DNA from: Methanobacteriota archaeon
Lineage (GTDB): Archaea > Thermoplasmatota > Thermoplasmata > Thermoplasmatales > ARK-15
Reading direction: 5' to 3'
DNA: 64,000 nt
NCBI GenBank assembly: GCA_009758405.1
Contig: WSBC01000004.1
Location: 114,634 to 178,633, forward strand
Made by a program: the position numbers and the translations under genes. The notes under the pieces were generated by a model. The model did no database searches and was not told the DNA's origin. It saw only the letters and a list, made by a program, of their open reading frames with translations. Positions 7,134 to 56,734 of the stretch are shown one piece after another. Every line of letters starts with the position of its first letter. Position 1 is the stretch's first letter.

Positions 7134-7146
7134 AGGGGTGTAAAAA

Positions 7147-7311
7147 ATGAAAAAGAAACTTTTTGATGTTGAAATAGTAAGGGAGGGGGATACTTACATT
7201 GCAAGAATCACACTGCCAAATGGTGATGTTTCAACAATAGAAAGCGATAATATAGAAGAGCTTTTGAACCATCTTAATACTGAACTAGAAGATCATTTTT
7301 CTAGAAGATGA
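7147..7311 (+). CDS. Small hypothetical protein (54 aa), below ORF-track cutoff
   Basis: MKKKLFDVEIVREGDTYIARITLPNGDVSTIESDNIEELLNHLNTELEDHFSRR; its TGA overlaps the glyA ATG (ATGA at 7308-7311). Weak resemblance to the UPF0150/HicB-type beta-alpha fold pattern. Confidence 0.4.
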   Translation: MKKKLFDVEIVREGDTYIARITLPNGDVSTIESDNIEELLNHLNTELEDHFSRR

Positions 7312-14310: not shown

Positions 14311-15806
14311 ACCATTGGCATCAGACTAACATTTGGGAATCCCTTATTCCTGTCTACAATCAGAGAGTGATAAATTATTCTAGGCTTTATTCCATAGATG
14401 AATGGAACATTTTCTATTTCCACAAGCTTAAGGTAATAATCGGATATATTAATTATTTCATTCTTTAACGACTGTGATTCCCTCACCATGAGTATTGCAA
14501 CATCGGAGGATGATTTAACTGACTGTGCCATATGGAATAATTCCTTTATTGCATTATCAGTTCCTTTTATGTATTCGAGTGTATCAGTACCTATAAAGTT
14601 TAGTACACTCTTATTTTCAAAACCAGTTAGATCAAGTATTGCCCTCAAAAGCCTCTGGTTAACCTGTTGTTCGTCCTTTCCACCAGCAGCAACAACATAT
14701 GGGATGTTTGATTCCTCAACTGTATAATCAACGTATCTTACTTTTTTTCTAAATATATCTGGATCTATGAATCTTGTAAAATCCTTTTCAAGTCTCATTG
14801 GATTCCATCCACCAAGAGGTATCATAAAAATTCCAATATCGTTATATAGAAAGTTTAATCCAATTGGTCTAAATAAAAGTCTTATCTCTTCCATAGAAAT
14901 ATCTTTTCCTATTTCAATTGTAAGGAATGATGAAGGTCTTATTCCATTACCAAGCATTTTATCTAAATCAGGAATTCCTGTGGAATAATAGTTATCATTT
15001 TTTGTTGGTTCAAACTTTGTAATCTCTCTTTTTTCATATTCTTCTGGGTAGAATGTAAGGAATTTACCACCATAAAGTGTATATGAATAACTTGACTGGA
15101 ATATTTCCACTCCCCTAAGCTTATTTATTTTCAATATCCTTTTCCTTCTTCCATCCTCCACGTCATGGTAAAGATATATCACACCATCAACAATATAATC
15201 CTCCGGGCTTATATCCCCCTTTTCTGAAACAAATATTATAGAGGCATTTGCACCTTCTACGAGATCATTCTGTATCATTGATACGAATTGATCTTCCCTA
15301 ATACCAAACCTGGAGGTGATTCCCTCTACAGAATCTATTACGACTACACTTTTGTTTGGCAAATTCATTTCAATCTCATCATATACACGTTTAACTTCTG
15401 GGGCTTGCCTTCCCTGAAAAACCTTTTGATATCCTGATCTTGGAACCTTTTTTGGTTGTTCACCGGTCATCTCCTGTAAAACTCTTCTCCCATACTCCTT
15501 AATAGGCTTTTCTTCCTCCTGAATCTGCGATAGAGCCTCAAGTAGTAGTTTTGAGGCCACAAGGAGTCTGAGGTTCTTTTCCATTCCTTTAAGCCAAGGA
15601 AATTGCTGATAAAGGCTAGCATCTCCCACCCTGGTTGAAAGATAAATAATGTTACTTTTTCCCTGCAATGTTTCTAGTATTTGCAGAGAAATTGTTGTTT
15701 TCCCACCTCCCGGAGGCCCCTTTACCAGTAGAGAGTTGCCATTTTTTGAAAGTAAAAACTGTAAAAGCTCATATGGAAATCTGTAATTTATATTCAATCC
15801 ATTCAT
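14307..15806 (-). CDS. KaiC/GvpD-like RecA-superfamily ATPase (two-domain)
   Basis: 499 aa; Walker A GPPGGGKTT, Walker B VVVIDSVEG, KINKLRGVE; C-terminal half has the same fold pattern but no Walker A. Confidence 0.65.
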   Translation of the reverse strand: MNGLNINYRFPYELLQFLLSKNGNSLLVKGPPGGGKTTISLQILETLQGKSNIIYLSTRVGDASLYQQFPWLKGMEKNLRLLVASKLLLEALSQIQEEEKPIKEYGRRVLQEMTGEQPKKVPRSGYQKVFQGRQAPEVKRVYDEIEMNLPNKSVVVIDSVEGITSRFGIREDQFVSMIQNDLVEGANASIIFVSEKGDISPEDYIVDGVIYLYHDVEDGRRKRILKINKLRGVEIFQSSYSYTLYGGKFLTFYPEEYEKREITKFEPTKNDNYYSTGIPDLDKMLGNGIRPSSFLTIEIGKDISMEEIRLLFRPIGLNFLYNDIGIFMIPLGGWNPMRLEKDFTRFIDPDIFRKKVRYVDYTVEESNIPYVVAAGGKDEQQVNQRLLRAILDLTGFENKSVLNFIGTDTLEYIKGTDNAIKELFHMAQSVKSSSDVAILMVRESQSLKNEIINISDYYLKLVEIENVPFIYGIKPRIIYHSLIVDRNKGFPNVSLMPMV

Positions 15807-20046: not shown

Positions 20047-20811
20047 TTACCTTTTTTCAAGGTCCTCGCCACCAGAATATGTCAACTGTATATTGCTATA
20101 AACGTCCTCCATTCCCCTGAGATCCCTAGAGGAAACAAAAAGAGGTTTAAAATTAACCCCAAGTGATTCCATTGCCTTGAACATCTCCAGTGCATACTCT
20201 TTTATCATACTCTGCCTTTCTTGTCTAAGATCCATATAGAGGGTATCCACATCCTCAGACCAAGACCTGATTTTAAATATTTCAGAATCATCAAGGAGGT
20301 CTATCTTGTTAATTATGTTTACATATGGCAAATAAAATCTGAAAAAAACAGAAGCTGAAAGGGTGAGCAATGATACATATCCTGAAGGGGAAATTGCAAG
20401 CATTGGATCCATAATAAATGCCATATAACTCTCCCTTTCGGATAGACCTCTTATTATGAGATCGCTAGATGTTCTAAAGGCAAACAATTCTAGCTGCCCC
20501 GGGGTGTCTATTATTGCATAATCTGCATCCATTGAAACTATTTCTTCCCTAATTTCATCAATCTCTGATGCAATCAGATCTGATGCTAGTATTTGTGCAC
20601 CATTTGGTCCAAGAGAATATTCTTCCATGATGTCCTGAAGCTGGTACCAGTCCCTGACATCCACATCCGGTCTATAGGGTATGTTCTCAACCCCAGGGTC
20701 TAAGTTAACGGTAATTGCCTCATACTGATTATTTCTCATCCATTCCTGAAGGGCATAGGTGAATGTGGACTTCCCAGAGCCTGCAGGTCCTGTAACATAA
20801 ATATATATCAT
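20047..20811 (-). CDS. GPN-loop GTPase (PAB0955/Npa3 family)
   Basis: 254 aa; GPAGSGKST, NLDPG, LGPNGA, IDTPGQLE, NKIDLL; 4-nt overlap with the PolD large subunit gene. Confidence 0.85.
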   Translation of the reverse strand: MIYIYVTGPAGSGKSTFTYALQEWMRNNQYEAITVNLDPGVENIPYRPDVDVRDWYQLQDIMEEYSLGPNGAQILASDLIASEIDEIREEIVSMDADYAIIDTPGQLELFAFRTSSDLIIRGLSERESYMAFIMDPMLAISPSGYVSLLTLSASVFFRFYLPYVNIINKIDLLDDSEIFKIRSWSEDVDTLYMDLRQERQSMIKEYALEMFKAMESLGVNFKPLFVSSRDLRGMEDVYSNIQLTYSGGEDLEKR

Positions 20812-23800
20812 ATAAAATCCTCCAGTTTTTTTCCATTAGATTTCTGTTGTTGTTCCTCAACAAATAATGTTCTTATTGCTTGCTCTGCAAAAAGGAGTCT
20901 CTGCCTTGTATAAGTACTTATCTTATACTCCTCTGAAATATCCTTTGCTATATCTAAGTACTTAGTTATTCCGCCCTCTGATATTGTAAGAACTATGTTC
21001 CCTCCACATTCACATTTACCAGTTAGAGGCATCCTCCTGTACCTCCTGTTACATTTAGAACATCTGAATTCCTGAGTGCCATACTTTCTCATATTTCCCA
21101 TTATGTCTGGAATGAAATGGTGTGAAACAATTCTGTTTGCAACATCCTTAGCATCTACTGCTCTGATCTTTTTTGCAAGAAGAAGTTGTGCATTTGTTTT
21201 CTTTTCCATTTCACCAAGTGTTTTGTATGCGCTCTCCAGTACTCCAATATTAATGTTGTTTGTATCGTGTGTGAATCCATAATCAATATATTCCTTACCT
21301 TTACCGAGCCTTTCTTTTATTGTTTCCATTTTTGAATTTATTTCCGATGGCTTTGCATTTCTTATTGAGGCTTCAAAAAATTCTAATGGATAATTAAACA
21401 TTATATCAACATTCAATGCCTCCTTATCCACCTCTCTTGGATCAACCCTGAGGGAGAGGAAAAGTGGAGCATCCATTAGGCTACCTCTTGAGGAGGGAAG
21501 ATAGTGCCTTGAAAAGTTTATCAATGCATCCAACAATAGCATTACAGAGTCCTCATCCCCATCACAGTTTCTTCTCTTCGCAGCATGATAAAATGGATGA
21601 GCAAAACATGCCTGGGCATCAGTATAACCTATAATCCTTGCAAGTATTGCACCTGATGTATGTGGTGAAAGACCCATCACAAGATGACCTATTAGATCTT
21701 CAATATTCCTTGCTTTATAATATGGTTCAAGACCATAATACCTTTGAAGAAGATCATCTATAAACCTTGAGACGCTCAGTAGGTACTCACCACCCCTTTT
21801 AGAAATTATTATATCCTGAGGGAAAATCTGCAAAACCTGCCCACCATCCCTCAATTCATTGCCGTAAATATCCTTGGTATAACCAAGCTCTCTAGCCCTT
21901 TCAACTGACAAACCAATCTCACGTGGTTTAAAATGTGTAATTGCCAGGTTACTCATATCAAACCTGGATGTACCATCCTTGAAAACCCAGACATTATGCA
22001 TTGCTCTCAGTATTCCCTTCTCCAGTGGCTCGGGCAAACTTTCCCTTGAAATCAGGCCCTTTACACCCTTAACATCGAAATCATAATCTACTATCCCTAA
22101 GTTATCCAATGCTCTCCTGAACTCCTCAGCTATGGGTATTTCTATTTTTTCTGTTTTTCCAGTGAACACAGTTCTGGTACCGCATTTTTCGCACCTTACC
22201 TTATATGTCTTTCTTTTACACCTCGGGCAAACCCTTACTCCTGCTTCTACAGAAACTATCTCATTAGAATTTTCAGTCAACAATGAAATCGATCTTCTTT
22301 TACCGATTGTTTCACCAATTGGGAATAGCACATTCACTGGTGGTTTCATTTTTCTTTCCGCTGCCTTCTCGGGTCTCCCCATTCTTGCTCCTACTCTGGT
22401 AGGCGCTCTGGGCATCACCTTTATTCCAGAAAATTTTTCAAGTAATTCAAAAACATCCTTTACATCATTTTCCCACTTCATTTTCTCAATTATTTTTCCA
22501 TTATTTTCACCTAAACCTAGGAAATTTATCAACACATCTAAATATCTCTCAATTATATATCCATCTCTATCCCTGTGTAAAACTCCAAGTGTGCAAAGGA
22601 TCTCCTTAATTTCATCATTCCTTTTTAAAATCAGTCTTCCTTCCTCAATCCTTCCATTTGAGATTATATGATCCCTCAACTTCTTTAATTCCTCTAAGCT
22701 TATATCGTGCCAGAAAAGGTTGAAGTCAGGATGGATGGGTATTCCATATTTTTTTGAAATCTCATAGGCCTCACTAAATGTTATTTTATCTAACTTTCCC
22801 AATCCCTTGGATGAGGCAATTGCATTCCACCATTCACGTGTAAAGGATCCCCTTTTTAATGGATAATTGTTTTCAAGGAATTCACCAAATGGAATTAGAA
22901 TCTCGCCATTATCATATATCTTTACTACCCTTCTTGATATTTCCATTGCTTCTTTATATGTATTAACCTGAACAAGGTCACCATTATCTAGCAAAACTAT
23001 AGGACCCTCTATGCTATCACAAGAAGTTATACCTGCAGCCTTTCCAGGGAATTCCAATTTCAGCTGTGTACCTATTGCTATGAAGTTGTCCATCAACACC
23101 ATGGATGCGGGATTTATGGATACTGTGGCAAGACCTCCCGTCCTGCATCTTCCATATCTCAGCCTGAAACCGCCCTTCATATCGGAATGTGAAAAAACAG
23201 GTCTTCCTGCAACTATATCCTCAATATATCTCTCTGAGGATTCACTCAAGCTATCGGATTTCTCTTGCCTAATAAGATTATCAAGGAATCCCCATCCATC
23301 AACATTCATTTTTTCTACAATGCCCTTTAATTTCCTTGCCTTCTGTATTATACCCTCTGCTACAACCAGGCACATTCCGCCCCTTACCCTGTTTGTCTCA
23401 ATCCCTGGTAAGTCCCTGAAGCCTGACACCTCTGTATCCAATGTTCCCTCTCCATCTATGCACACTGGGCAATTTTTTATTGTTTCTTCAACCTCTGTTG
23501 TAGAGGGCTGGTATTGTAAATGCTCTACATTCCCATATATTTGTATCTCTTCTTTATATCTCTCCACAATCTCAGGTGTTGGTTTAAATTGCCCAAGACC
23601 AAGGTCCCTCCTCACAATATCACCTATCAGTACACTAAGTGCCTGAGCAGTACCACCTGCACCCCTTATGGGTCCTGAATAATAAATTGAAAGATATTCT
23701 GTTCCATCGGCGTTTTTCTTAATCTTTACATCAGTGATTCCCTCCAGTGGTGCCACCAATATGCCTTCTGTTAATATGGCAAGACCTATCCTCACTGCCA

Positions 23801-24083
23801 AATCAAGTGCCTTTATTCTATCCTCAGAAAATTTCTTTGCTATTTCCTTTGCAGCCATTATGCTTACTGTCTCCCTATCATATTTTTTTGAATATTCCCT
23901 TATGATATTTGCCACACCCTCTATACCAAATAATTTTTCAACCCTTGATGCTAGATCCTCCGCCATAGGAATTTCAACATGATCCTCTGGATCTTTACCC
24001 ATTTCCCTTGCTTTTTCAGCAATTTCATAACATTTTTTAGCGTTTTCTTCAAGATTTTTGAAATAATAATCCATATGGATCAC
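20808..24083 (-). CDS. polC: DNA polymerase II (PolD) large subunit DP2
   Basis: 1091 aa; Zn modules CPRCKRKTYKVRCEKCG and CSKCNRRYRRMPLTGKCECGG, GIRGAGGTAQ-type region (PIRGAGGTAQAL), NCDGDED catalytic motif; no intein. Confidence 0.9.
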   Translation of the reverse strand: MIHMDYYFKNLEENAKKCYEIAEKAREMGKDPEDHVEIPMAEDLASRVEKLFGIEGVANIIREYSKKYDRETVSIMAAKEIAKKFSEDRIKALDLAVRIGLAILTEGILVAPLEGITDVKIKKNADGTEYLSIYYSGPIRGAGGTAQALSVLIGDIVRRDLGLGQFKPTPEIVERYKEEIQIYGNVEHLQYQPSTTEVEETIKNCPVCIDGEGTLDTEVSGFRDLPGIETNRVRGGMCLVVAEGIIQKARKLKGIVEKMNVDGWGFLDNLIRQEKSDSLSESSERYIEDIVAGRPVFSHSDMKGGFRLRYGRCRTGGLATVSINPASMVLMDNFIAIGTQLKLEFPGKAAGITSCDSIEGPIVLLDNGDLVQVNTYKEAMEISRRVVKIYDNGEILIPFGEFLENNYPLKRGSFTREWWNAIASSKGLGKLDKITFSEAYEISKKYGIPIHPDFNLFWHDISLEELKKLRDHIISNGRIEEGRLILKRNDEIKEILCTLGVLHRDRDGYIIERYLDVLINFLGLGENNGKIIEKMKWENDVKDVFELLEKFSGIKVMPRAPTRVGARMGRPEKAAERKMKPPVNVLFPIGETIGKRRSISLLTENSNEIVSVEAGVRVCPRCKRKTYKVRCEKCGTRTVFTGKTEKIEIPIAEEFRRALDNLGIVDYDFDVKGVKGLISRESLPEPLEKGILRAMHNVWVFKDGTSRFDMSNLAITHFKPREIGLSVERARELGYTKDIYGNELRDGGQVLQIFPQDIIISKRGGEYLLSVSRFIDDLLQRYYGLEPYYKARNIEDLIGHLVMGLSPHTSGAILARIIGYTDAQACFAHPFYHAAKRRNCDGDEDSVMLLLDALINFSRHYLPSSRGSLMDAPLFLSLRVDPREVDKEALNVDIMFNYPLEFFEASIRNAKPSEINSKMETIKERLGKGKEYIDYGFTHDTNNINIGVLESAYKTLGEMEKKTNAQLLLAKKIRAVDAKDVANRIVSHHFIPDIMGNMRKYGTQEFRCSKCNRRYRRMPLTGKCECGGNIVLTISEGGITKYLDIAKDISEEYKISTYTRQRLLFAEQAIRTLFVEEQQQKSNGKKLEDFI

Positions 24084-25539: not shown

Positions 25540-26217
25540 CTATTTCATTAAATATTCCTTTATTTCTTTTAAAAAATCAATAAATTCCTCTCTTTTAACC
25601 CTTCCAGTGTTTACATTCCTCGGGCTCGGGTGATAATGCATAAAAACTCTTACACCATTTATATCAATATATGATCCATTTACAAACTCATCCTTTATAT
25701 TAATCCCCTTCTCCCTATAATACATTTTGAGAGATTGGAATGCCACCCTTCCTAGAACTAAAATCGCCCTAAGGTTTCTCATAGTATCTATCTCGAATTT
25801 AAGATATGGCAGGCAATTTTTCATTTCTTCGGGTGTAGGTCTATCGTTTGGAGGTACACATTTTACAACAGCAGTAACATAAGTATCATAATATATTAAG
25901 CCATCTTCCCTACTAATAGAACTACCTTTATTTGTAAATCCAACCTCATAAAGGCAGGATACAAGAAATTCTGCACTCTTATCACCCGTAAATATCCTGC
26001 CAGTCCTGTTTCCACCTGTGGCTGCAGGTGCAAGACCTAGTATGAGAAACTTACCATTATGATCACCATAACCCGGTACGGGCTTGCTCCAGTAGTTTTC
26101 TCCAAAGTATCTATTTTTTCTTTCCGATACTCTTACCCTAAATTCAACTAACCTTGGGCATTTTTCACATCTTACAAGAAATTTATTCATTTCTTCAAGA
26201 TCCTTGAACATTTTCAA
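25540..26217 (-). CDS. udg: Uracil-DNA glycosylase, family 4/5 (Fe-S type)
   Basis: 225 aa; CEKCPRL, ILGLAPAATGGNRTGRIFTGD (A-P-A rather than G-E-x-P-G suggests the UDGb-like family 5), HPSPRN. Confidence 0.75.
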   Translation of the reverse strand: MKMFKDLEEMNKFLVRCEKCPRLVEFRVRVSERKNRYFGENYWSKPVPGYGDHNGKFLILGLAPAATGGNRTGRIFTGDKSAEFLVSCLYEVGFTNKGSSISREDGLIYYDTYVTAVVKCVPPNDRPTPEEMKNCLPYLKFEIDTMRNLRAILVLGRVAFQSLKMYYREKGINIKDEFVNGSYIDINGVRVFMHYHPSPRNVNTGRVKREEFIDFLKEIKEYLMK

Positions 26218-28175
26218 TAAAGCCTTATTGATTCAAGATTCCTTGGCGAAATTGAATTAAAACCAAATTTATAGCTAAAGGTACCCGCCAGGTATTCGCA
26301 ATTCTCATTATCACCATGACATGTAATTATCCTGTTTGGCTTTGGAGACATGGAGGTAATGTACTGTATAAGCTGTTTTCTATCCGCATGTCCAGAGAAT
26401 CCTTCAACAGTTATTACCTGAAGATTGATATCTATGTTCACCATGGTTCCCTTTCTTGGCAGGGAAACACTCTTTACACCAGATTGAATTTTTCTTCCCA
26501 AGGTTCCCTCTGCCTGATAACCTACAAATAAAAGTGCATTCTTAGGATCATCGGCAAGGTTCATAAAATATTCCAGTACTGGTCCACCGTTCATCATGCC
26601 TGAGGTGGCAAGTATTACGGCAGGTTCCTGGTCATCTATTATCTTTTCTCTTGTTTCCGATGTATCCACCCTAACAAATATATCTGAAAGGAATGGGTTA
26701 TCTGTTTTTTTAAACATCCTTTCCCTTAGATCTCGATTGAGATATTCTGGATAGGCAGCATGAATTGCAGTTGCTTCCCATATCATTCCATCTAAATATA
26801 CTGGTACCTTTGAAATTTCATTTTTCCTCATATAATCCTCAAGAACCACCATCACCTCCTGGCTCCTTCCCACTGCAAAAACAGGGATTAAAACCTTTCC
26901 CCTTCTGTTAATAACATCCTGGACAACATTTTTTAAATTTTCACTTGCCTCTTTCCTTGTGGGCTGAAAATTGTCCTTTCCACCGTAGGTGGATTCAATT
27001 ACCACAGTCTCAGCCCTAGGAAACCTGTTTGTAGCAGGAGAAAATAGCCATGTTTTCTCAAACTTTATATCGCCTGTTATTACAACATTATGAAGTCCCT
27101 CTCCTATGTGAAAATGTGCAACAGATGAGCCAAGAATATGACCAGCATTATGAAATGTTAATCTAACATCAGGTGTAATGTCCGTGGTTTCGCCATATTC
27201 AATAGTTATTGTTCTTTTAAGCATCTCTTTTATGTCCTTGAAATCGTAGGGTACCTTATTGCCTTCTGCATGTGCCAGTTTAATATAATCCATTTGTAAG
27301 AGAACTGCTAGGTCTCTGGTAGGAAGCGTTAAATAAACTGGGCCCTTGTAATTATACTTGTATAGAAAAGGTATGAGGCCTGAATGGTCAATGTGGGCAT
27401 GCGTAAGAACAACAGCATCAAGATATTTGAATGGATTATTTTCATTCTGAAACGCATCCTGTGACCATACCTCTGGAACATAGAGATATGGAATACCCGA
27501 CCAGGGCTCATTTCCTTGAACATTTGCCACATTTACCCCACAATCAACCAAAATCCTACTATTTCTTGTCATGAGAAGAGTGGCGGATCTCCCCACCTCC
27601 CTGTAACCACCTAGTGCAATTATTCTAACCCAGTTTTCTCCCTGTAACACAGGTCTATTCAATTTTTTTCCAATCTCCCTGAGGAACTCTCTTCTCATAT
27701 CCTTGTTTTCCTTGAGGAATTCTCTTACCTCTGTAACTATTCTGGATGGTATGGGGGGTGTTCTTATTACTTTGGGTGCCCATTTTATCCTCTTTTTAAT
27801 TTCATTTAATAAATAACCTTCCTTACCTATTACCAGACCTGGAGCTTCAGCAGCAATTACCACCTCACAGGTTTCAGGCTCAAAATAAATATCTGATACC
27901 CCTGCCTCAGGTGGAACAATCTTCATTATTTCCTCCCTTGCCTCATTCTCATCCATAAGAATTGATGGATCAGGCCTTATAGAAATTCTCCTCCTAATTT
28001 TTTGTGCTATTTGCTTTACAACATCAGGATTTTCAGTGAAAAAATCAATATCTTTAGTATAAACAACGATAATTGAGGCTTCAAAATCTATGCTAGTGAT
28101 GTTGATTGATGGTGCATATTCAAGAACGGCCATTTTCGTCTGTTCCAGTATATCCTCCCATTCTCCCGCAAACAT
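26214..28175 (-). CDS. aCPSF1: KH-domain beta-CASP metallo-beta-lactamase ribonuclease
   Basis: 653 aa; N-terminal KH-like GLVIGKEG, MBL motif THAHIDHSG, beta-CASP region, C-terminal HGD. Confidence 0.9.
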   Translation of the reverse strand: MFAGEWEDILEQTKMAVLEYAPSINITSIDFEASIIVVYTKDIDFFTENPDVVKQIAQKIRRRISIRPDPSILMDENEAREEIMKIVPPEAGVSDIYFEPETCEVVIAAEAPGLVIGKEGYLLNEIKKRIKWAPKVIRTPPIPSRIVTEVREFLKENKDMRREFLREIGKKLNRPVLQGENWVRIIALGGYREVGRSATLLMTRNSRILVDCGVNVANVQGNEPWSGIPYLYVPEVWSQDAFQNENNPFKYLDAVVLTHAHIDHSGLIPFLYKYNYKGPVYLTLPTRDLAVLLQMDYIKLAHAEGNKVPYDFKDIKEMLKRTITIEYGETTDITPDVRLTFHNAGHILGSSVAHFHIGEGLHNVVITGDIKFEKTWLFSPATNRFPRAETVVIESTYGGKDNFQPTRKEASENLKNVVQDVINRRGKVLIPVFAVGRSQEVMVVLEDYMRKNEISKVPVYLDGMIWEATAIHAAYPEYLNRDLRERMFKKTDNPFLSDIFVRVDTSETREKIIDDQEPAVILATSGMMNGGPVLEYFMNLADDPKNALLFVGYQAEGTLGRKIQSGVKSVSLPRKGTMVNIDINLQVITVEGFSGHADRKQLIQYITSMSPKPNRIITCHGDNENCEYLAGTFSYKFGFNSISPRNLESIRLY

Positions 28176-46202: not shown

Positions 46203-46949
46203 CTATTTGCCCACCACAACAATGAACGCAGTGTGGAGAAGGCCTGTATTTATAGGCCTTAATTCCCTTTGACCTACCTTCCATTGTCTGCTTATTATTT
46301 CATATACCTCTATACTTTTCGCACCAGTATCTTTAATTTTTTCAGCAAATAAATGTACCTGATTTATATTTGGAAGATAGGCAATTATCCTTCCATTTTC
46401 ATAGATTGATTCGTAGCATTCTCTTGAAATTGCTGATGGATCGGGTATATCCAGGAAAATTGCATCGTACTTTTTATTCATAAAATTAATTCTTTCATCA
46501 ACCTTAATTGAAATAAAATGAGAATCCCACCCAAGCCATTTCATTATATTACTAACATGTTCAAGATTAGATGATGAAGAATCGAATCCATAAAGGATCC
46601 CAGGTATGATATAATATAGAATACTTACCGAGAGATAACCAGATCCCACTCCCACCTCGGCTACTGTTGACCCTGGCCTCACCCCGGATTTTAAAAGCAT
46701 AAATCCGATGTCCTTTATTGATATTGTCTGTGTTATCTTTTCCATGTTTGATAAAATGTCTTCAAGAGAGGGTCTAACAATTAAAAATTCATGGTCTAAT
46801 ATCTTTATGGTGTCTCCGAAGGATAATTTAAGAAATCTCGATGTTTCTATAACACCTAATCCTGGTATCCATTCCTTTTTCCCACTCACTTTAACTATAA
46901 AAATACGCTTACCTTTAAGACCAATCAACTGCCCTTGTTCCACAAACAT
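46203..46949 (-). CDS. trmI: tRNA (adenine-N1)-methyltransferase TrmI/Gcd14
   Basis: 248 aa; EVGVGSGYLS, FLDIPDP, RPINTGLLHTAFIVVVGK. Confidence 0.8.
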   Translation of the reverse strand: MFVEQGQLIGLKGKRIFIVKVSGKKEWIPGLGVIETSRFLKLSFGDTIKILDHEFLIVRPSLEDILSNMEKITQTISIKDIGFMLLKSGVRPGSTVAEVGVGSGYLSVSILYYIIPGILYGFDSSSSNLEHVSNIMKWLGWDSHFISIKVDERINFMNKKYDAIFLDIPDPSAISRECYESIYENGRIIAYLPNINQVHLFAEKIKDTGAKSIEVYEIISRQWKVGQRELRPINTGLLHTAFIVVVGK

Positions 46950-47543: not shown

Positions 47544-48278
47544 ATGCTAAGGAAATCAATATACGATATTGAGTGGAAATATTACGACCTTTTATATGGT
47601 GATCTAAGTGAAGATATTGATTTTTACAGAAGATTTGTAAAGGGAAAGTCCCTTCTTGAAATAATGTGCGGAACAGGAAGAATTATATCATCATTGAAAA
47701 ATTTGGAAGAAAGGTATGGTCTAGATATAGATGAGAGGATGCTTTCAATAATGAGATCCAAGGATAAAAAAATTGTAGCAATTAAGGCAGATGCAAGGGA
47801 ATTCTCAATTAAAAAGAAATTTGATAATATAATAATAGGCCTAAATTCAATTTTAATGTTTAATTCTGATGATAAAATAAAGTTACTTAAAAATGCTAAA
47901 AAGCATCTGAATAAGGATGGAAAGATATTTGTTGATGCGATAATGCCTCCAGATCTTGAAGAGGGTGTTGTTTATCTGGGGGATTACAAAATAAGAGGGG
48001 AAACAGAGATATATAGATACTTTGTTCCATATTTTTCTCCTGACATGAGGATTCTTCATCTCAGATATATTTATGATATATTTGAAATGGGTGAATACCG
48101 GAGGGAGACAGCAATGCTTTTGCTCTATCCTGAAAACTATCAGGAAATGAAAGAAATTGCAAATAAATCGGGCTTAAAAATAAAGAATGTTTATGGAGGA
48201 TATGATTGCAAAAGGTTTAATTCAAGTAAAAGTGAAAGGATGTTACTTGTACTTAAGAAGGTAGAGGAAGATGAATGA
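47544..48278 (+). CDS. Class I SAM-dependent methyltransferase
   Basis: 244 aa; motif I LLEIMCGTGRI. Confidence 0.7.
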   Translation: MLRKSIYDIEWKYYDLLYGDLSEDIDFYRRFVKGKSLLEIMCGTGRIISSLKNLEERYGLDIDERMLSIMRSKDKKIVAIKADAREFSIKKKFDNIIIGLNSILMFNSDDKIKLLKNAKKHLNKDGKIFVDAIMPPDLEEGVVYLGDYKIRGETEIYRYFVPYFSPDMRILHLRYIYDIFEMGEYRRETAMLLLYPENYQEMKEIANKSGLKIKNVYGGYDCKRFNSSKSERMLLVLKKVEEDE

Positions 48279-48672
48279 TGAAAAATTTCTTTCTTTACTT
48301 GATTCATTAATAGAGATAAATGAAAATACACCTGTAATAGTTGAGGGAATAAGGGATGAAAAGGCCCTTAGAAAAATAGGGCTTAAAGGAAAGATAATAA
48401 TTTTCAATAGGGGAAAGTCATTATATGATTTTTCTGAAATTATTTCGAATTTGTACAATGAAGTAATAATTCTTTTTGATAATGATAGAAGGGGAAGGTA
48501 TTTGACAAGATACGTTTCAAGGATTCTTGAATCCAAGGGAGTGAGGGTAAATCTTGAATATAGAGATTTCATATTTTCAATGCTTGAGATGAAGGGTATC
48601 GAAGAGATTTCTACATTCTATGAAGAGTCCATGGAAAGAAGGATAAATGGCAAAAGGAGGAGGATGCAATGA
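48271..48672 (+). CDS. Toprim-domain protein (UPF0292-like)
   Basis: 133 aa; [18 protein letters not shown]...[14 protein letters not shown]. Confidence 0.6.
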
Positions 48673-50279
48673 TAGTCCTTGGAATAGAAGGTACCGCGCA
48701 CACACTAGGCATAGGAATAATTGAAGATGAAAAAATACTTGCCAACATAATGGACATGTTTGTGCCTGAAGAAGGTGGAATACATCCTAGAGAGGCTGCT
48801 GTTCACCATTCTAATAAATTCATACCTTCATTGAAAAAGGCATTGTCAATTGCTAAAATAGATATGAAGGATATTGACCTGGTTGCATTCTCTAAGGGTC
48901 CCGGTCTAGGGCCATGTTTGAGAACTGTTGCTACAGCTGCAAGGGCAATCTCCTTAAAGATGAATATTCCAATAATTGGGGTTAATCATAGTATTGCCCA
49001 CCTCGAAATAGGAAGATTGACAGGTGGTGTGGAAGATCCTGTAATGACCTATGTGTCCGGTGGAAATACTCAGATAATATCATATTCAAATGGAAGGTAC
49101 AGGGTTTTTGGAGAGACTCTTGACATAGGTATTGGAAATCTTTTAGATAAGTTTGCAAGAGAGATAAACATACCATTTCCTGGAGGTCCAATGATAGAAA
49201 AATTGGCGAAAAATGGAAAAATATACTATGACCTTCCCTATTCAATAAAGGGTATGGATGTCTCATTCTCAGGGATATTGACCGCACTTAAATCATATCT
49301 GAGGCAAGGGGCCTCTCCAGAGGATCTCTCCTTCTCATTACAGGAAACAGTTTTTTCAATGATGACTGAGGTGACAGAAAGGGCCCTTGCGCATCTCCAT
49401 AAGGATGAGGTATTACTTACGGGTGGAGTTGCAAGGAATGGAAGGTTAAGGGAAATGATGAGAATCATGGCGGATGAAAGGGGTGCTATTCTTCATACAC
49501 CACCACCTGATCTTTGTGTGGATAATGGGGTAATGATTGCATATCTAGGAATGATAATGCACAGGGAGGGAATAAAAATGGATATTGAGGATACTTGGGT
49601 GGACCAGAAGTTCAGGGCAGACTCCATAGATGCCCCTTGGGTAAAGGAAAAGGTCCACTTTAAAAATTATCCTGAATTCCCCGGTGCAGAGGCGAGGATT
49701 ATTAAATCAAGGTATCTTGATATAGAGACAATAAGGAAGGAGAGGATAAGAAAGGCATACAGGATAAAGGAGATTGACGATTTTTTAAGGAGGGAAAGAA
49801 CAAAAAGGGAGGCAAGGATCTTGAATCTAATAAAAGCACTAGGTATAAATGCTCCATATGTATTAGATATTGACCTTAGAGAAGGGATTATGGAAATTTC
49901 ATTTATAGAGGGTAAAAACCTTAGGGAAATATTTGAAGAAATACCAGAAAATGAGAGGTATAGAATTGACGATGTAATAGGTTTATATATTGCAAAAATG
50001 CATAAAAAAGGAATTTCACATGGGGACATTACCACAAGCAACATAATGTATGATGGTATGAATGTTTACATAATAGATCCATCAATGGGGGATTTGAATT
50101 CAAAGGTGGAGGAGCTTGGAACAGATCTTCATCTATTGAAGGAATCCTTTCTCAGTGCACATTCAAATCTAATGGCGGATTTTGAAAGGATTATTCAAAG
50201 TTATCTTAAATATTATCCTGAGGGTATTGTAAACGTAGAAAGAATGAAGGAGATAGAGGGAAGGAGGAGATACTCATGA
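48669..50279 (+). CDS. kae1: Kae1-Bud32 fusion: tRNA t6A threonylcarbamoyltransferase + atypical kinase
   Basis: 536 aa; N-half [25 protein letters not shown]..; C-half RIO-like kinase ..[16 protein letters not shown]. Confidence 0.9.
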
Positions 50280-50836
50280 TACTTGTAACACATAATCAGC
50301 ATAAATTCCTTGAATATGAAGAGATATTTCTAAGATCTAAGATTGAATTAGAATGGTATAACTATGAGTATCCTGAGCTCCAATCCGATAATCTTAAAGA
50401 GATTGTTGAATTTTCACTTAAACACGTCAGCAGAATATTGAATAGACCATTTTTCCTGGAGGATACCGGTCTTTTCATAGATTCTCTTGGAGGATTCCCA
50501 GGTCCCTATTCCTCCTACGTTCAGGAGAAGATTGGAAATATGGGCATTTTAAGACTTTTGGAGGGGATTTCAAATAGAAATGCAAGGTTTATTTCTTTAA
50601 TAGGCTATTTTGATGGTAAAAATTTTTACTATTTTGATGGCACACTTGAGGGTAGTATTTCATATTCGATAAGGGGTAAAAATGGTTTTGGCTATGATCC
50701 AATATTTATACCTGAAAAATATGATAAAACACTTGCTGAAATGAGTATTCAGGAAAAAAATTCAATCTCGCACAGAAGGAGGGCACTTGACAAGCTTCTT
50801 GGGTATATTAAAAATTCAATGGAAAGTATAAAATAG
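50276..50836 (+). CDS. Non-canonical purine NTP pyrophosphatase (HAM1/RdgB)
   Basis: 186 aa; [30 protein letters not shown]. Confidence 0.85.
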
Positions 50837-52081: not shown

Positions 52082-52154
52082 TGCCGTGGGCCGGGATTGA
52101 ACCGGCGGCCTCCAGATCTTCAGTCTGGCGCTCTCCCAGCTGAGCTACCACGGC
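52082..52154 (-). tRNA. tRNA-Phe (GAA)
   Basis: GCCGUGGUAGCUCAGCUGGGAGAGCGCCAGACUGAAGAUCUGGAGGCCGCCGGUUCAAUCCCGGCCCACGGCA folds as a cloverleaf with anticodon loop CU-GAA-GA; no encoded CCA; GC-rich island in an AT-rich spacer. Confidence 0.95.
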
Positions 52155-52328: not shown

Positions 52329-52709
52329 TTACTTGATGAAAAATATAGTTAGACCATCTATATCATCAAGAATAACCTTTATATCTGGATTCTCCAGGTC
52401 AACAATTTTACCCATCTTCTCCTTTATCATTTTTCCAACAATTCTATTATCCTCCATGGAATTATTCCTTTTTGACCTTACTGCAAATGATTTAAATTCA
52501 TAATCCTTCAATAATTCAGGTATTTCTTCAATTTTACTTATAACATATGCAATATTTCCTCCCTCAATCTCCCCATTATAAAATAAAAGTAGCTTGTTAC
52601 CAGATATCCTATAAATAAATTCGCCTTCACCCTTTAGAAACTTTCTTTTTAATGATTCTAGAAAATTTTTCAATTCGTTTCTGTTTTTAAAATAAAAAAC
52701 CTTTATCAT
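52329..52709 (-). CDS. Stand-alone THUMP-domain protein
   Basis: 126 aa; ..FAVRSKRNNSMEDNRIVGKMIKEKMGKIVDLENPDIKVILD.. (THUMP-like pattern); ATGA overlap with the upstream gene. Confidence 0.55.
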   Translation of the reverse strand: MIKVFYFKNRNELKNFLESLKRKFLKGEGEFIYRISGNKLLLFYNGEIEGGNIAYVISKIEEIPELLKDYEFKSFAVRSKRNNSMEDNRIVGKMIKEKMGKIVDLENPDIKVILDDIDGLTIFFIK

Positions 52710-54775
52710 CTTATATGACCGAGGGTAAATGATCCCATTATAATTCCACTCTTTGAAGGTGATATTTCAATCCATGACCTGCTCTGTACCTCTGTAATAC
52801 CATTTACCTGCAGATATATTTTGTTCATCTCTGTCTTAAATTCAATGGTTCCATCCATAAGGTGAGATACTAGTTGTATTGTATTTTCCTCATGTAATCC
52901 CTTTTCAAGGAGATATAGTGACACTGCCCTATCCTTTTTCCTCCTAGTTGTAAATGGTTGCAAGAACCTTACAACTGTTGGCGCATCAAGGAACGTGAGT
53001 ATGGTTGATAATGAAAAGAACGCAAGCCTGTAATATTTGTAGTTCTCCCTAATTTTGGATGATATATCCTCAACTGCATTTACAATGCCATTTATATCAG
53101 TTTGAGAATCTATGCAAATTACACCCTTTCTTTCACATTTCTCCCCTATTGTTTTTGAGTATGCATCAATGTAGTTCACTAGACCATTATCAACATATGT
53201 ACTCCATGTGGGTAGTACATATTTAATATCCTCCTCGAAAATTTCAATGGTTTTATCAACAAGTATTACTATCACGGGTATTCCCTTTTTTACACCCTCA
53301 GCAAGGAATGAATATATGAGTACTTCCTTTCCAGTATATGCCGGTCCATATACAATAATATTTGAACCCAATGGAAATCCACCATAAAGAAGATCATCAA
53401 GCCTTCTTGTTCCAGTCCTTACCTTTTCTTCCTTTATCTCTGTCAATATCTCCTCTTGGGCCATTGAAATCTCTTTTTCTATTAAACCCTTAGTTTTTGC
53501 CTCTATCTCCTTTTCCTTCTCCCTTAGATATTTCTCCTTCTCACGTAACTGCTCCTCTTTTCTTTTTATCAATTCCTCGAGATCCTCTATTTTATGCTCT
53601 TTTTCGAGTTTTTTCAATTCCTCTATTTCTATTTTCTGGGACTCAATTTCACGCATCATCTGTTCAATCTTTTTCTCCCTGAACTGTAGATCCTGCTCCC
53701 TCCTTGAAAATTCCTCCTCTTTAAATTTTATCTTTTCCTTTAAATCATTTATTTCCTTTTCCATTATTTCCATCTGTGTTTTCAAATTCTGATTTTCCAT
53801 CTTTAATTTTTCAATATTTGAGATATCCTCTGATTTTTGCAACAGTTCAGTATTACCTGATGCCAGGGCCTTAATTAGATTATTTAATCTTTCTATCTCT
53901 GATTTTAGTAGCCTATTCTCTTCCTCTAAAAATTTAATATCTGTAGTATCATATGATTCTTTCTTAGGAATTTCAAATTTTTCCCTTTCAGCAAGTTCCT
54001 TCATCTGCTTTTCAATAAGCAGTTCCTGTTCCTTAAGCTTCAACTCCCTTTCAGCAAGTTCCCTCACATCTGGATTTTGCGAAGAGACCCAGTCATCCCA
54101 AAGTTCCTTTTGAACCTGAATTCTGTTTTGCAAATTCTCAATTTCTATCTTAAGATCATTATTTTCCATGGCAATAGATAATATTTTTTCCTTGACTTCC
54201 TTTATATCATTAGCATTAACTATTTCTCTTATTTCATTTATTAATCTTTCATATTTTTCTTTTTCAAACCTTAATTCATAAATCTTGTTTTCAAGCTCAT
54301 TTATTCTATCTGAATAATCCAAAAGGACTGAAATCACATCTTTCTTATTTTTTAGATCATTTAGAAAATTTAATTTGTTCAAAATATTTTTGAATGTTAA
54401 TTTTACATTTTCTTTAAGCTGTCTTAAATCCTCCAGGGTCCTTTTCAGTTCATCACTTTTTTCGTCCAGTTCCCTCTTTTTTTCAAGTAGTTCCTCCTTC
54501 AATCTTATAATCTGCTCATCCTCAAGAGATACAGCCTTGTTTTCAATATCCTCTATCTTTTTACTCTCTCCTTTCAACCACTTTTCTATGTTATCCAGTT
54601 CATTTGAAACGCTTTCATATTTACTTTCAATTGTATTTTCCGTTAGGCTGGAAAGAATAAAATCTGTTAATAAATTATTATACTCCTCTTTTGTATATTT
54701 TTTACCACATTTTTTACATACGAGGGTAACTTCATCGATTTCTCCACCACATTGTGTGCATTTTACCATATTCAC
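52706..54775 (-). CDS. Zn-ribbon / ~400-aa coiled-coil / KaiC-RecA-like domain protein (Walker motifs apparently degenerate)
   Basis: 689 aa; N-term CTQCGG..x..CKKCG; heptad-rich K/E/L segment ~60-460; C-domain GTRRLDDLLYGGFPLGSNIIVYGPAYTGKEVL (GK-E instead of GK-[ST]); expected Walker B position reads LAFFSLS. Confidence 0.6.
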   Translation of the reverse strand: MNMVKCTQCGGEIDEVTLVCKKCGKKYTKEEYNNLLTDFILSSLTENTIESKYESVSNELDNIEKWLKGESKKIEDIENKAVSLEDEQIIRLKEELLEKKRELDEKSDELKRTLEDLRQLKENVKLTFKNILNKLNFLNDLKNKKDVISVLLDYSDRINELENKIYELRFEKEKYERLINEIREIVNANDIKEVKEKILSIAMENNDLKIEIENLQNRIQVQKELWDDWVSSQNPDVRELAERELKLKEQELLIEKQMKELAEREKFEIPKKESYDTTDIKFLEEENRLLKSEIERLNNLIKALASGNTELLQKSEDISNIEKLKMENQNLKTQMEIMEKEINDLKEKIKFKEEEFSRREQDLQFREKKIEQMMREIESQKIEIEELKKLEKEHKIEDLEELIKRKEEQLREKEKYLREKEKEIEAKTKGLIEKEISMAQEEILTEIKEEKVRTGTRRLDDLLYGGFPLGSNIIVYGPAYTGKEVLIYSFLAEGVKKGIPVIVILVDKTIEIFEEDIKYVLPTWSTYVDNGLVNYIDAYSKTIGEKCERKGVICIDSQTDINGIVNAVEDISSKIRENYKYYRLAFFSLSTILTFLDAPTVVRFLQPFTTRRKKDRAVSLYLLEKGLHEENTIQLVSHLMDGTIEFKTEMNKIYLQVNGITEVQSRSWIEISPSKSGIIMGSFTLGHIR

Positions 54776-54987
54776 TTTGAAGCTATCCTTAAAATATTAT
54801 TTCCCCTAACTATCACCACACCAAGTTTTCTTACAGAGTCATTCATCTTTTCTTCAGTATCATCAATTATTAGATTCATATACTCATCAAAGCCTATTAA
54901 TGTACCTTCAAGGATCCTGTTATCCTTCATAAGCATAGATATTCTTTTATTCATAAACTCTTCAATTACTTTAATTGGCATTGTCAT
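54772..54987 (-). CDS. Sm-like archaeal protein (SmAP/LSm)
   Basis: 71 aa; ..ISMLMKDNRILEGTLIGFDEYMNLIIDDTEE...LGVVIVRGNNI. Confidence 0.88.
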   Translation of the reverse strand: MTMPIKVIEEFMNKRISMLMKDNRILEGTLIGFDEYMNLIIDDTEEKMNDSVRKLGVVIVRGNNILRIASK

Positions 54988-54996
54988 TGAATCACC

Positions 54997-55155
54997 TCAG
55001 TTGTTTGGAAATGGCCCCTTCTCGTCAAGTTCATCTTCATCATCATTAAAGACAACCTGAACGAGTTCACGCATAAGTGATTTTAGCTCATCCATTTCCT
55101 TTCTTAGCCTTTTTATCTCGTTATTTAGCCTTTCTATTTCATTTTCTTTTTTCAT
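54997..55155 (-). CDS. Small coiled-coil ORF (52 aa), below track cutoff
   Basis: MKKENEIERLNNEIKRLRKEMDELKSLMRELVQVVFNDDEDELDEKGPFPNN; fills the gap between csl4 and the Sm gene on the same strand. Confidence 0.35.
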   Translation of the reverse strand: MKKENEIERLNNEIKRLRKEMDELKSLMRELVQVVFNDDEDELDEKGPFPNN

Positions 55156-55169
55156 AAATTTTCCTCTAA

Positions 55170-55745
55170 TTATGGTTTATTTTTTACCTTTATTTTAATG
55201 TTTCCGTAATCGTTTGCAATTTTCCTTGTTTCTTTTCTGCCACAACGCTCACAGTAAAGAAAATTGTCCTGTCTTATTAAGGGATGCCTACATTTCATAC
55301 ATAATGCCTTAACCACACCCAGATTAGGTTCAGCGGTAGAGAGCTGAACTGATGGCTTTGATTTTATTACCCTCGCCCTTACAATATCACCTATTCTAAA
55401 CATCTTTCCAATTTCATCAACATATTTTTCAGATATCTTGGAAATATGTATGATGCCATCCTGCCTTCCACCAACTATTTCCCTATCAATGCCCTCTATG
55501 CCAACAATGGTAACTAGTGCAAAATCATTGTAAAGTTCTTGAACAACACCATAAACTACCTCTCCTATCCTTAGGTATGGAATTTCCTGTAAAGGTTTTA
55601 CATTTATCATCATATGTTTTTGATTAATTTCAATCCTACCCAAGATATTGGAGAATATTTTTCCATTAATCTCATACACATTATGTCCAGGCACGTATTC
55701 CTCTATAGTTCCAAGATATTCTCCAGGCAATACTATTCTATCCAT
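55170..55745 (-). CDS. csl4: Exosome complex RNA-binding subunit Csl4
   Basis: 191 aa; N-domain PGEYLGTIEEYVPG, S1 domain GDIVRARV, C-terminal Zn ribbon CMKCRHPL..CERCG. Confidence 0.85.
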   Translation of the reverse strand: MDRIVLPGEYLGTIEEYVPGHNVYEINGKIFSNILGRIEINQKHMMINVKPLQEIPYLRIGEVVYGVVQELYNDFALVTIVGIEGIDREIVGGRQDGIIHISKISEKYVDEIGKMFRIGDIVRARVIKSKPSVQLSTAEPNLGVVKALCMKCRHPLIRQDNFLYCERCGRKETRKIANDYGNIKIKVKNKP

Positions 55746-56331
55746 CTTTTTTCACCCTTATCCTTATTAGCTTTACATCTATTTTTTTATATTCCCTGCT
55801 ATGAAACTTAAACCCATAAGGTATATTTAATTTATAATCTTTTTCAAAATCAATTTCACCCCTTTTATACAATAATTTTTTAAGATAATCAATAGCATCA
55901 CTATGGTGTAAAGTATAAATAACATCTGCTATTTCCAGTGCCTTTATAATAAAGATTCTATCTGCCCCAGGTAGCTGATATCCAAAAGGTGGATTCATTA
56001 AAACAGTATTTACCTTAATATTAAAATTTCTCACATCACCAAGGTGCATTTTAATACCCATTCCTCTACAGTTATTTTCAGCAATCTTAAGTGCATCTTC
56101 ATCAATTTCTATACAGTGTATCTCCCTAGCCCCCATATAATATGCTGCCACTGCAAAGGCACCATTACCACAACCAAGATCTGCAACTACCTTCCCATTA
56201 ATATCATTCATTGCAATAAATGCTATATCGGCAACAATATCTGGGGGTGTCTCATACTGCTCAAAAAGTACCTTTTTAACCTTTAGTTTCTCAAGTGATC
56301 CAATTATTTTTTCAAGTTCTTTTTTGTTCAT
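55738..56331 (-). CDS. METTL5-like RNA methyltransferase (COG2263)
   Basis: 197 aa; LEQYETPPDI, VADLGCGNGAF, MNPPFG; typical neighbour of csl4. Confidence 0.8.
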   Translation of the reverse strand: MNKKELEKIIGSLEKLKVKKVLFEQYETPPDIVADIAFIAMNDINGKVVADLGCGNGAFAVAAYYMGAREIHCIEIDEDALKIAENNCRGMGIKMHLGDVRNFNIKVNTVLMNPPFGYQLPGADRIFIIKALEIADVIYTLHHSDAIDYLKKLLYKRGEIDFEKDYKLNIPYGFKFHSREYKKIDVKLIRIRVKKDG

Positions 56332-56332
56332 T

Positions 56333-56734
56333 TCATTCCCTTAGAATGCTTCCATCAAAAATTTTTATTATTCTTTTTGCGATTGATTTTGAATCCTTAA
56401 GTGATATGCCCTTACTAACAAGGATGTTTACTATATTTTTATATGCCCTTTGCCACTTCCATGTACTTCTTACATAATAGGTTTTAATCAAAACCTCAAG
56501 GATATCTTTGCTTATTTCTATGTTATAATTTTCCTTAAGCCTTTCCTTCCAAATCTTATAAATAAAATTGGGTATTACCACTGGTTCTATATAAGTCTCT
56601 TCCAATGATTCATTCACAAAACATTTATTTTTTGCATTTATAAAAATTTTACTTAATTGTAAAAATTTTATATTATTAATTTTATTTATTCTAAAAGAAT
56701 TTGAATTTGGAAAATTTTTAATATCATCGTACAA
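56333..56734 (-). CDS. Hypothetical protein (up to 133 aa; N-terminus uncertain)
   Basis: The stop abuts the METTL5-like start. The first ~40 codons are extremely AT-rich and lie 20 bp from the divergent OFOR start; no internal Met. Confidence 0.4.
   Translation of the reverse strand: MYDDIKNFPNSNSFRINKINNIKFLQLSKIFINAKNKCFVNESLEETYIEPVVIPNFIYKIWKERLKENYNIEISKDILEVLIKTYYVRSTWKWQRAYKNIVNILVSKGISLKDSKSIAKRIIKIFDGSILRE

Follow-up and report, generated by a model that had tools for sequence, protein, structure and literature searches.

Genes for Sm-like archaeal proteins (SmAPs) are almost always found directly upstream of the gene for the zinc-finger protein L37e, often close to tRNA genes (PMC3710371). 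The proteins themselves are physical interaction partners of the archaeal exosome, the link being DnaG, which in turn binds the Csl4-exosome (PMC5570065). A 64-kb stretch of an assembly from the ARK-15 lineage of the Thermoplasmatales (64,000 nucleotides of contig WSBC01000004.1, hereafter the window) departs from the first of these patterns, in that the gene following its Sm gene encodes a long protein composed of a Zn ribbon, a coiled coil and a C-terminal KaiC-like domain. The resemblance to the Sm-L37e tandem lies in the layout: the Sm gene is succeeded, at a distance suitable for coupling, by a co-oriented gene whose product begins with a C4 zinc ribbon, and a tRNA gene is nearby (PMC3710371). 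The difference is that this downstream gene encodes a Zn-ribbon protein of another family. No L37e-like small zinc-ribbon open reading frame (ORF) was found anywhere in the window. Derivation of the ribbon of the KaiC-like protein from L37e was considered and rejected, as there is no Pfam L37e hit and no PDB L37e match of the N-terminus, and what is shared amounts to a generic CxxCG spacing.

All genes of the locus lie on the minus strand. The product of the Sm gene (54772-54987, 71 amino acids) scores 74.1 bits against Pfam LSM (E 7e-21; cut-off 23.4), matches the archaeal SmAP1 structures 1th7, 1i8f and 1i4k as well as eukaryotic SmG and SmE, and retains the conserved D-x-(F/Y)MN and RGN motifs in alignment. 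Directly upstream is cc52 (54997-55155), which encodes a 52-residue coiled-coil protein, and directly downstream is the KaiC-like gene (52706-54775). Read from GTG 54775 the latter encodes 689 residues, and the sequence-only reading accordingly described a GTGA overlap with the Sm gene; its homologues, however, begin MxKC and measure 687 residues, so that ATG 54769, 2 nt after the Sm TGA, is the likelier start. Residue numbers below follow the 689-residue form.

The order of these three genes is conserved well beyond the window. ORFs were called in 87 loci, and the window proteins, together with profiles made from their matches, served as queries against them. In both the window's own clade and the DHVE2/Aciduliprofundum clade the Sm gene lies directly upstream of the KaiC-like gene in 34 of 34 loci, from 31 species representatives, with junctions of approximately -4 to +12 nt, and none of the 31 species-level genomes that could be assessed lacks any part of the cc52-Sm-KaiC-like cassette. 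Within the window's clade (15 loci, the closest genome being the metagenome-assembled genome (MAG) 'Aciduliprofundum sp. ARK-15', whose C-terminal domain is 90% identical) the cassette is part of a longer conserved string: a small ORF, a METTL5-like methylase and Csl4 precede it, and a THUMP protein follows. In DHVE2/Aciduliprofundum, including the cultured A. boonei, the cassette is always present, while upstream of it Csl4 is missing in most cases or other genes are found; downstream there is an unrelated beta-rich protein of about 100 residues, followed by Kae1-Bud32 and Ham1. Hence Csl4 may be present, lost or replaced on one side, and the THUMP protein exchanged for the beta-rich protein on the other. 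That the cassette is intact despite breakpoints on both sides argues for selection on the three-gene unit. It is ancestrally appended to METTL5-Csl4, conserved and translationally coupled.

Taken together, the Csl4/METTL5 context, the link between SmAPs and the exosome (PMC5570065) and the presence of a Zn-ribbon protein in the L37e slot (PMC3710371) favour an RNA-linked scaffold over any other single reading of the KaiC-like protein in the window's lineage, and a probability of roughly 0.4 is assigned to it.

The C-terminal domain (residues 451-689; 52709-53425) has a KaiC/RecA fold. It scores 57.7 bits against Pfam KaiC (PF06745, cut-off 26.6) over residues 452-651 and 36.4 bits against DUF7504 (PF24336, cut-off 27), which 47 of 62 long relatives also match. 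An AlphaFold2 model of the C-terminal 239 residues, made with an 18-sequence alignment, reached a mean predicted local distance difference test score (pLDDT) of 87 and a predicted TM-score of 0.88, and its best Foldseek matches are the hexameric RecA-superfamily ATPase PH0284 (2dr3; TM-score 0.80, E 1.7e-15), KaiC CI and SSO2452. With PH0284 and SSO2452 (2w0m) the domain shares the fold over its whole 239 residues, at 20-22% identity, together with an N-terminal RLDDLLxGG-type motif and an AEGLKKG helix. These proteins are, however, stand-alone and carry a canonical GKT, the Glu-Glu pair and the Walker B Asp, whereas the KaiC-like protein has some 450 residues of Zn ribbon and coiled coil ahead of the domain, reads GKE and D-K, and has no Walker B Asp. 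Similarly, the KaiC CI and CII domains of the cyanobacterial clock share the fold and the Pfam family, but here there is a single domain, its catalytic residues are lost, and KaiA and KaiB genes are absent. In almost all family members the domain is C-terminal, ending in a conserved tail, GSFxLxHIR.

The alterations to the active site extend across the family. In a profile alignment to PH0284, the deviant Walker A sequence GPAYTGKE (53324-53347; K483, E484) has E484 at the Ser/Thr position, D507-K508 (53252-53257) lies opposite the catalytic Glu-Glu, and in the strand equivalent to Walker B, RLAFFSLS (53006-53029), F587 is opposite the Asp of the PH0284 sequence RVVVDS. Counts were taken over 342 aligned family members. 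The Walker A Gly is near-invariant and the Lys is kept in 94%, while the residue after the Lys is Glu in 293 (86%) and Ser or Thr in 9. At the Walker B Asp position Arg (119), Leu (70), Met (36) and Phe (34) predominate, with Asp in about 7; the catalytic Glu-Glu positions are occupied by Asp in 218 and by Lys in 221. The domain therefore lacks the GxxxxGK[ST] Walker A, the hhhhD Walker B and the catalytic Glu-Glu alike, and is not to be classified among the KaiC-type ATPases. Both deviant motifs are at the places given by the sequence-only reading, and its suggestion of a non-catalytic or atypical nucleoside triphosphatase (NTPase) gains from their being family-wide traits rather than a local defect. 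Such consistent alteration across the 342 members implies that the deviant site is ancestral and maintained.

Comparison between the window and DHVE2 leads in the same direction. The C-terminal domain is 62-65% identical, as conserved as Sm (56-63%), and values for the other proteins are 48% for Csl4 (from a single DHVE2-side locus, L033) and 37-40% for METTL5. This points to a selected non-catalytic or atypical module and not to one in decay; judged from these identities, the domain is under strong purifying selection. It does not align to any characterised family that combines intact Walker motifs with a known non-RNA function.

A site so well kept might instead still be in use. On this account the protein would be an active, deviant NTPase or a KaiC-type signalling switch, in which the Glu after the Walker A Lys coordinates Mg2+ in place of the Thr and Walker B Asp that were lost, and nucleotide state or phosphorylation controls assembly. 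The conservation of the Walker A Gly and Lys and of GKE exceeds what would be expected of an abandoned site, those 218 members keep the Asp equivalent to D507 where the first catalytic Glu would be, and the closest folds are those of ATP-dependent hexamers. KaiC-like proteins, moreover, are said to have been proposed as archaeal signalling hubs by Makarova et al. in 2017. Set against this, the Walker B Asp position varies freely between R, L, M, F and E, the Arg found there in 35% of members is more likely to plug the site than to serve it, and in the loci examined the neighbourhood has no conserved kinase, phosphatase or sensor partner. An enzymatic or signalling role is thus regarded as unlikely.

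RecA-like modules that have lost their Walker motifs and act in assembly or binding are known elsewhere, among them Elp4/5/6 (PAXNEB), whose Elp456 ring is one that binds tRNA, Rad51 paralogues and MEDS. Together with RNA-processing scaffolds built of an anchor and a coiled coil, they would be the nearest analogues in function. Weak PAXNEB (29.7 bits) and MEDS matches do occur in the family, but the likeness is limited to the P-loop region, the scores are near or below cut-offs, and none of these modules has a coiled-coil or Zn-ribbon architecture. Nor does the protein belong with SMC, Rad50 or the archaea-specific SMC-related proteins: its coiled-coil matches reach 17 bits against cut-offs of 300-730, and it has a single RecA-type P-loop domain, at the C-terminus only.

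Ahead of the C-terminal domain, the overall plan inferred from the letters alone (N-terminal ribbon, coiled coil, KaiC/RecA-like domain) proved correct. The CxxC-x10-CxxC zinc ribbon (residues 6-23; 54707-54760) reads CTQC...CKKC and has predicted beta strands; C4, C7, C18 and C21 in the alignment's numbering are invariant, and the window's clade and DHVE2 show high conservation of the sequence CxxCGGxIDxxTLxCxxCG. The alpha-helical, heptad-periodic region that follows occupies residues 29-445 (53441-54691). Over residues 41-445 the heptad periodicity is 0.478, against 0.266 +/- 0.021 in shuffled sequences (approximately 10 standard deviations), which bears out the description of about 400 residues of heptad-like sequence, though not of an uninterrupted one. 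An AlphaFold2 model of the full length (17-sequence alignment) has a small beta Zn ribbon and then helices over residues 27-443 with seven short breaks; the final helix, from about residue 310 to 443, is continuous for some 134 residues, and the N-terminal half is broken into segments. For the whole model pLDDT is 65, a value to be expected when a coiled coil is modelled as a monomer. Relatives with different N-termini share conserved sequence over the last 110 or so residues of the coiled coil (KEEExxRREQDLxFREKK..., RKEEELRxKEKYL).

Those N-termini are of several kinds: the Zn ribbon with KWLxGE motifs, the Zn ribbon with a double helix-hairpin-helix, (HhH)2, and a multi-pass transmembrane domain. 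The window's protein has one copy of the motif L-x-K-W-L-x-G-[ED], as IEKWLKGE (54566-54589). Of 120 homologues, 78 have one to four copies, which invariably lie after the N-terminal module and before the coiled coil, and the motif is confined to members of the Zn-ribbon type, where it links the Zn ribbon or HhH module to the coiled coil, transmembrane-type members being without it. It is a candidate partner-binding linear motif. Five transmembrane-type relatives match RNase_Y_N, at best with E 6e-9, and these matches are attributed to the K/E-rich composition of the coiled coil and not to homology. No other informative domain fusions were found in the family. One locus (L088:337-1656, protein P0052) encodes a 439-residue product consisting of an SRP54/FtsY-type N/G fragment joined to the KaiC-like C-terminal domain, followed by THUMP. 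It was discounted as a functional clue, as it comes from a single 5.7-kb MAG contig and its junction falls exactly at a repetitive EIKEEK boundary; it is probably an assembly chimera or a local deletion.

The (HhH)2 domain of the variants bears on the possibility that the protein is a mediator of DNA repair or recombination, akin to the archaeal RadA paralogues of the PH0284/SSO2452 type and acting like non-catalytic Rad51 paralogues, with the Zn ribbon and HhH modules binding DNA. Those two proteins are the top structural matches, some relatives are named 'RAD55 family ATPase' or 'recombinase RecA', and HHH_5 is found in variants as it is in RadA/Rad51 N-termini (Rad51 1pzn, E 0.014). The closest match of the HhH domain, however, is NusA AR1 (E 1.7e-5), a protein-interaction module, and it was accordingly not accepted as decisive evidence of DNA binding. 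Furthermore, the window's protein has no HhH domain, repair genes do not recur in the neighbourhoods examined, and membrane-anchored variants fit such a role poorly. A function in DNA repair is consequently held to be very improbable.

Outside the two clades, loci were taken as assessable where at least 800 nt of upstream sequence was available, and in 0 of 39 such loci was Sm, cc52 or THUMP found nearby. The largest other clade (23 loci) is instead flanked by a small transmembrane ORF and a DUF1614+RDD membrane protein. Multi-pass transmembrane N-termini are present in 21 of 120 close homologues, and at least two N-terminal transmembrane helices are predicted in 35 of 142 further cluster representatives. 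These observations all count against the preferred reading, as do the facts that the link to RNA is one of gene order only and that no RNA-binding domain is detectable by Pfam in the KaiC-like protein itself; the retained Lys and conserved Glu, too, could still support some atypical catalysis. The case originally made from the position of the gene between Sm and THUMP is therefore only partly sustained: the Sm link holds in two clades and 31 species-level genomes, and the architecture more widely, whereas THUMP is adjacent in the window's clade alone (15 loci). An RNA-linked role is plausible for this lineage and is not generalisable to the family.

The membrane-gene flanks and transmembrane-type relatives point to a general membrane or cytoskeletal scaffold. 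It would serve shape, division, the envelope or chromosome tethering and have no RNA function, and the position beside Sm would reflect inherited operon structure or housekeeping co-expression. A long coiled coil is a common feature of cytoskeletal proteins, the (HhH)2 variants suggest tethering to nucleic acids or proteins in general, and in the 23 loci the gaps between the KaiC-like gene and its membrane-protein neighbours are 3-15 nt. Membrane-anchored relatives and the lack of an Sm link elsewhere thus leave this a strong rival. It accounts less well for a cassette that survives rearrangement on either side in 31 species-level genomes with junctions at translational-coupling distance, or for the recurrence of RNA-related neighbours in unrelated arrangements (Csl4/METTL5 in two clades, TruD, GCD14 and THUMP). 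On balance it is considered possible, if doubtful. With regard to those neighbours, TruD lies directly downstream of the KaiC-like gene in three loci of other clades, and GCD14/Trm61 and GatD lie downstream in six. In a distant soda-lake Thermoplasmata MAG (L055:2702-6732) the KaiC-like gene again stands downstream of METTL5-Csl4, with a pair of small coiled-coil ORFs (80 and 83 residues) in between and no Sm, a hint that association with the Csl4 operon predates association with Sm.

The 23-locus clade is haloalkaliphilic Thermoplasmata (L045-L087; for example L051:4290-8148). Its small transmembrane ORF is upstream of the KaiC-like gene, the DUF1614+RDD protein follows downstream, and after it come an M24 peptidase and an AsnC-type protein.

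If the RNA-linked scaffold is nevertheless accepted for the window's lineage, the KaiC-like protein would be a structural element and not an enzyme. Its C-terminal domain would still oligomerise like its ring-forming relatives and may bind a nucleotide or phosphate ligand via the retained Lys, as a non-hydrolysing hub or switch. The heptad-periodic helix of about 400 residues would form a long stalk, and the N-terminal module, which varies between lineages, would decide what that stalk is tethered to. Made in step with the Sm ring and cc52, the protein could organise or tether Sm-bound RNA, such as tRNA or rRNA precursors or exosome substrates, while the THUMP protein would serve as a non-catalytic tRNA-end adaptor. 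By analogy, such an arrangement is like RNase Y or degradosome-type scaffolds, in which an anchor and a coiled coil organise RNA-processing partners, and like Tan1/THUMPD1-type adaptors, in which a non-catalytic THUMP protein serves another protein. Neither likeness is one of homology: here a KH/HD nuclease domain is lacking, as is an acetyltransferase partner.

The seven ORFs of the string lie back to back at 52329-56734 in the ORF list of the window, and their tight packing, order and coordinates are as first described, with identities backed by Pfam and NCBIfam. The small conserved ORF and the METTL5-like gene are 1 nt apart, METTL5 and Csl4 overlap by 8 nt (-8), and gaps of +14 and +9 nt separate Csl4 from cc52 and cc52 from Sm. 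The junction between Sm and the KaiC-like gene is -4 nt from the GTG start or +2 nt from the ATG start, and that between the KaiC-like gene and THUMP is -4 nt, an ATGA overlap as had been noted.

The first ORF had been extended too far, to 56734 (56333-56734, 'hyp133'). All of its homologues, which are 88-102 residues long, begin at an equivalent VNESLEE... position, corresponding here to GTG 56617, and the gene (56333-56617) probably encodes 94 residues. The product bears the motif YYVRSTWKWQRAYK and has no family match in Pfam or NCBIfam, although the ORF is found upstream of the METTL5-like gene in 20 or more loci. The METTL5-like gene, the conserved partner it precedes, encodes an MTS-type S-adenosylmethionine methyltransferase of 197 residues (55738-56331; PF05175 MTS, 3.8e-11). 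Csl4, the exosome cap subunit (55170-55745, 191 residues), scores 200.4 bits against the equivalog NF034126 (cut-off 90), matches ECR1_N and S1, and has a C-terminal CxxC...CxxC. In so far as the locus had been called an exosome neighbourhood, the term comes down to Csl4 alone; no Rrp4, Rrp41 or Rrp42 was noted among the window ORFs scanned, which were a minority of those in the window.

The cc52 gene is genuine and conserved, being present in 33 loci and always immediately upstream of Sm, although Pfam returns nothing for it beyond coiled-coil noise. Its product combines an amphipathic helix of leucine-zipper-like character with an acidic tail, whose last residues are GPFPNN in the window and FFDFN, MYGYT or LYTYN in DHVE2. 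Such a tail, with its aromatic or proline ending motif, recalls the C-terminal docking tails of other systems. Small ORFs upstream of the KaiC-like gene in distant clades were tried as cc52 homologues and rejected, there being no similarity; several are transmembrane peptides or spurious ORFs.

The THUMP protein (52329-52709) is a minimal, stand-alone one of 126 residues, with matches to PF02926 (27.6 bits, cut-off 20.6) and to Pus10_THUMP_arc (PF22023; 35.2 bits, cut-off 28), a weak ThiI N-terminal match in NCBIfam, and no catalytic domain detected by Pfam or NCBIfam. NCBI names it 'THUMP domain-containing protein', and its homologues were found only in the window's clade. The gene that takes its place in DHVE2 (FLWKKGKLYLSV...RAMRHFLLPY; L020:6717-7031 and 11 other loci) has a start overlapping the KaiC-like stop. 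A divergent THUMP was considered for this product and rejected, as no profile hits it, it belongs to a different, beta-rich sequence family and it has no Pfam match; it is a second lineage-specific, translationally coupled partner.

A co-oriented tRNA-Phe(GAA) gene (52082-52154) follows 174 nt after THUMP. An Rfam scan of the window found nothing beyond this tRNA. The tRNA-Phe is in the same position after THUMP in 7 of the 14 related loci scanned, so that an mRNA-tRNA co-transcript may be made beside a gene for a tRNA-end-binding domain. In three loci (L015, L017 and L061, at about 7144-7217) it is only 22 nt past the THUMP stop, though the next protein-coding gene differs, and it is also present in locus L001 at 10557-10629.

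Elsewhere in the window there is a second KaiC-family protein (14307-15806, minus strand), a GvpD-like product of 499 residues (GvpD_P-loop 5e-18, KaiC 1e-13) with a canonical GPPGGGKT. Further genes counted as information processing encode PolD DP2 (20808-24083), FttA/aCPSF1 (26214-28175), a GCD14/Trm61-like tRNA methyltransferase (46203-46949), a kinase specific for adenosine, a Toprim protein of small size (48271-48672), a fusion of Kae1 and Bud32 (48669-50279) and Ham1 (50276-50836).

The family to which the KaiC-like protein belongs is large: there are 162 close clusters, and with clusters drawn at 50% identity 251 representatives lie at E <= 1e-30. In species-representative genomes a relative is encoded by 453 stretches; 80 of these were retrieved as loci, and all 80 come from Thermoplasmatota-type MAGs or genomes. 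The names attached to relatives in the sources are all generic: 'ATPase domain-containing', 'DUF7504 family', 'RAD55 family ATPase', 'recombinase RecA' and 'KaiC/GvpD/RAD55 family RecA-like ATPase'. Neither by name nor in the literature searched was a characterised equivalent found, as the sequence-only reading had supposed. The same literature makes no mention of DUF7504 and does not describe the family or the Sm cassette, and papers on ESCRT and on 'dark matter' contained nothing pertinent, though comparative work on archaeal KaiC-like proteins may mention them.

The cellular role of archaeal Sm proteins is poorly defined, and their partners come from a few pull-downs only. A conserved, coupled KaiC-like partner in the place of L37e offers a specific candidate for a complex around Sm that can be put to the test, and the lineage has a cultured member, Aciduliprofundum boonei. 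At its most far-reaching, the arrangement could represent an unrecognised archaeal ribonucleoprotein organiser: a ring-forming pseudo-ATPase hub with coiled-coil arms, whose Zn-ribbon/KWLxGE tips together with cc52 would dock Sm heptamers, the THUMP adaptor joining in the window's clade. This would be a Thermoplasmatota-specific platform that concentrates tRNA or rRNA precursors or exosome substrates, replacing the near-universal Sm-L37e pairing. So complete a version is speculative and decidedly unlikely; were it true, the organiser would be the functional counterpart of bacterial degradosome scaffolds or of eukaryotic Lsm-containing granules. Separately from any Sm complex, the coiled-coil proteins of this Thermoplasmatota family, which is both large and strongly conserved, carry a RecA-fold domain that has lost its catalytic residues, and the family may constitute a main structural component of the cells.

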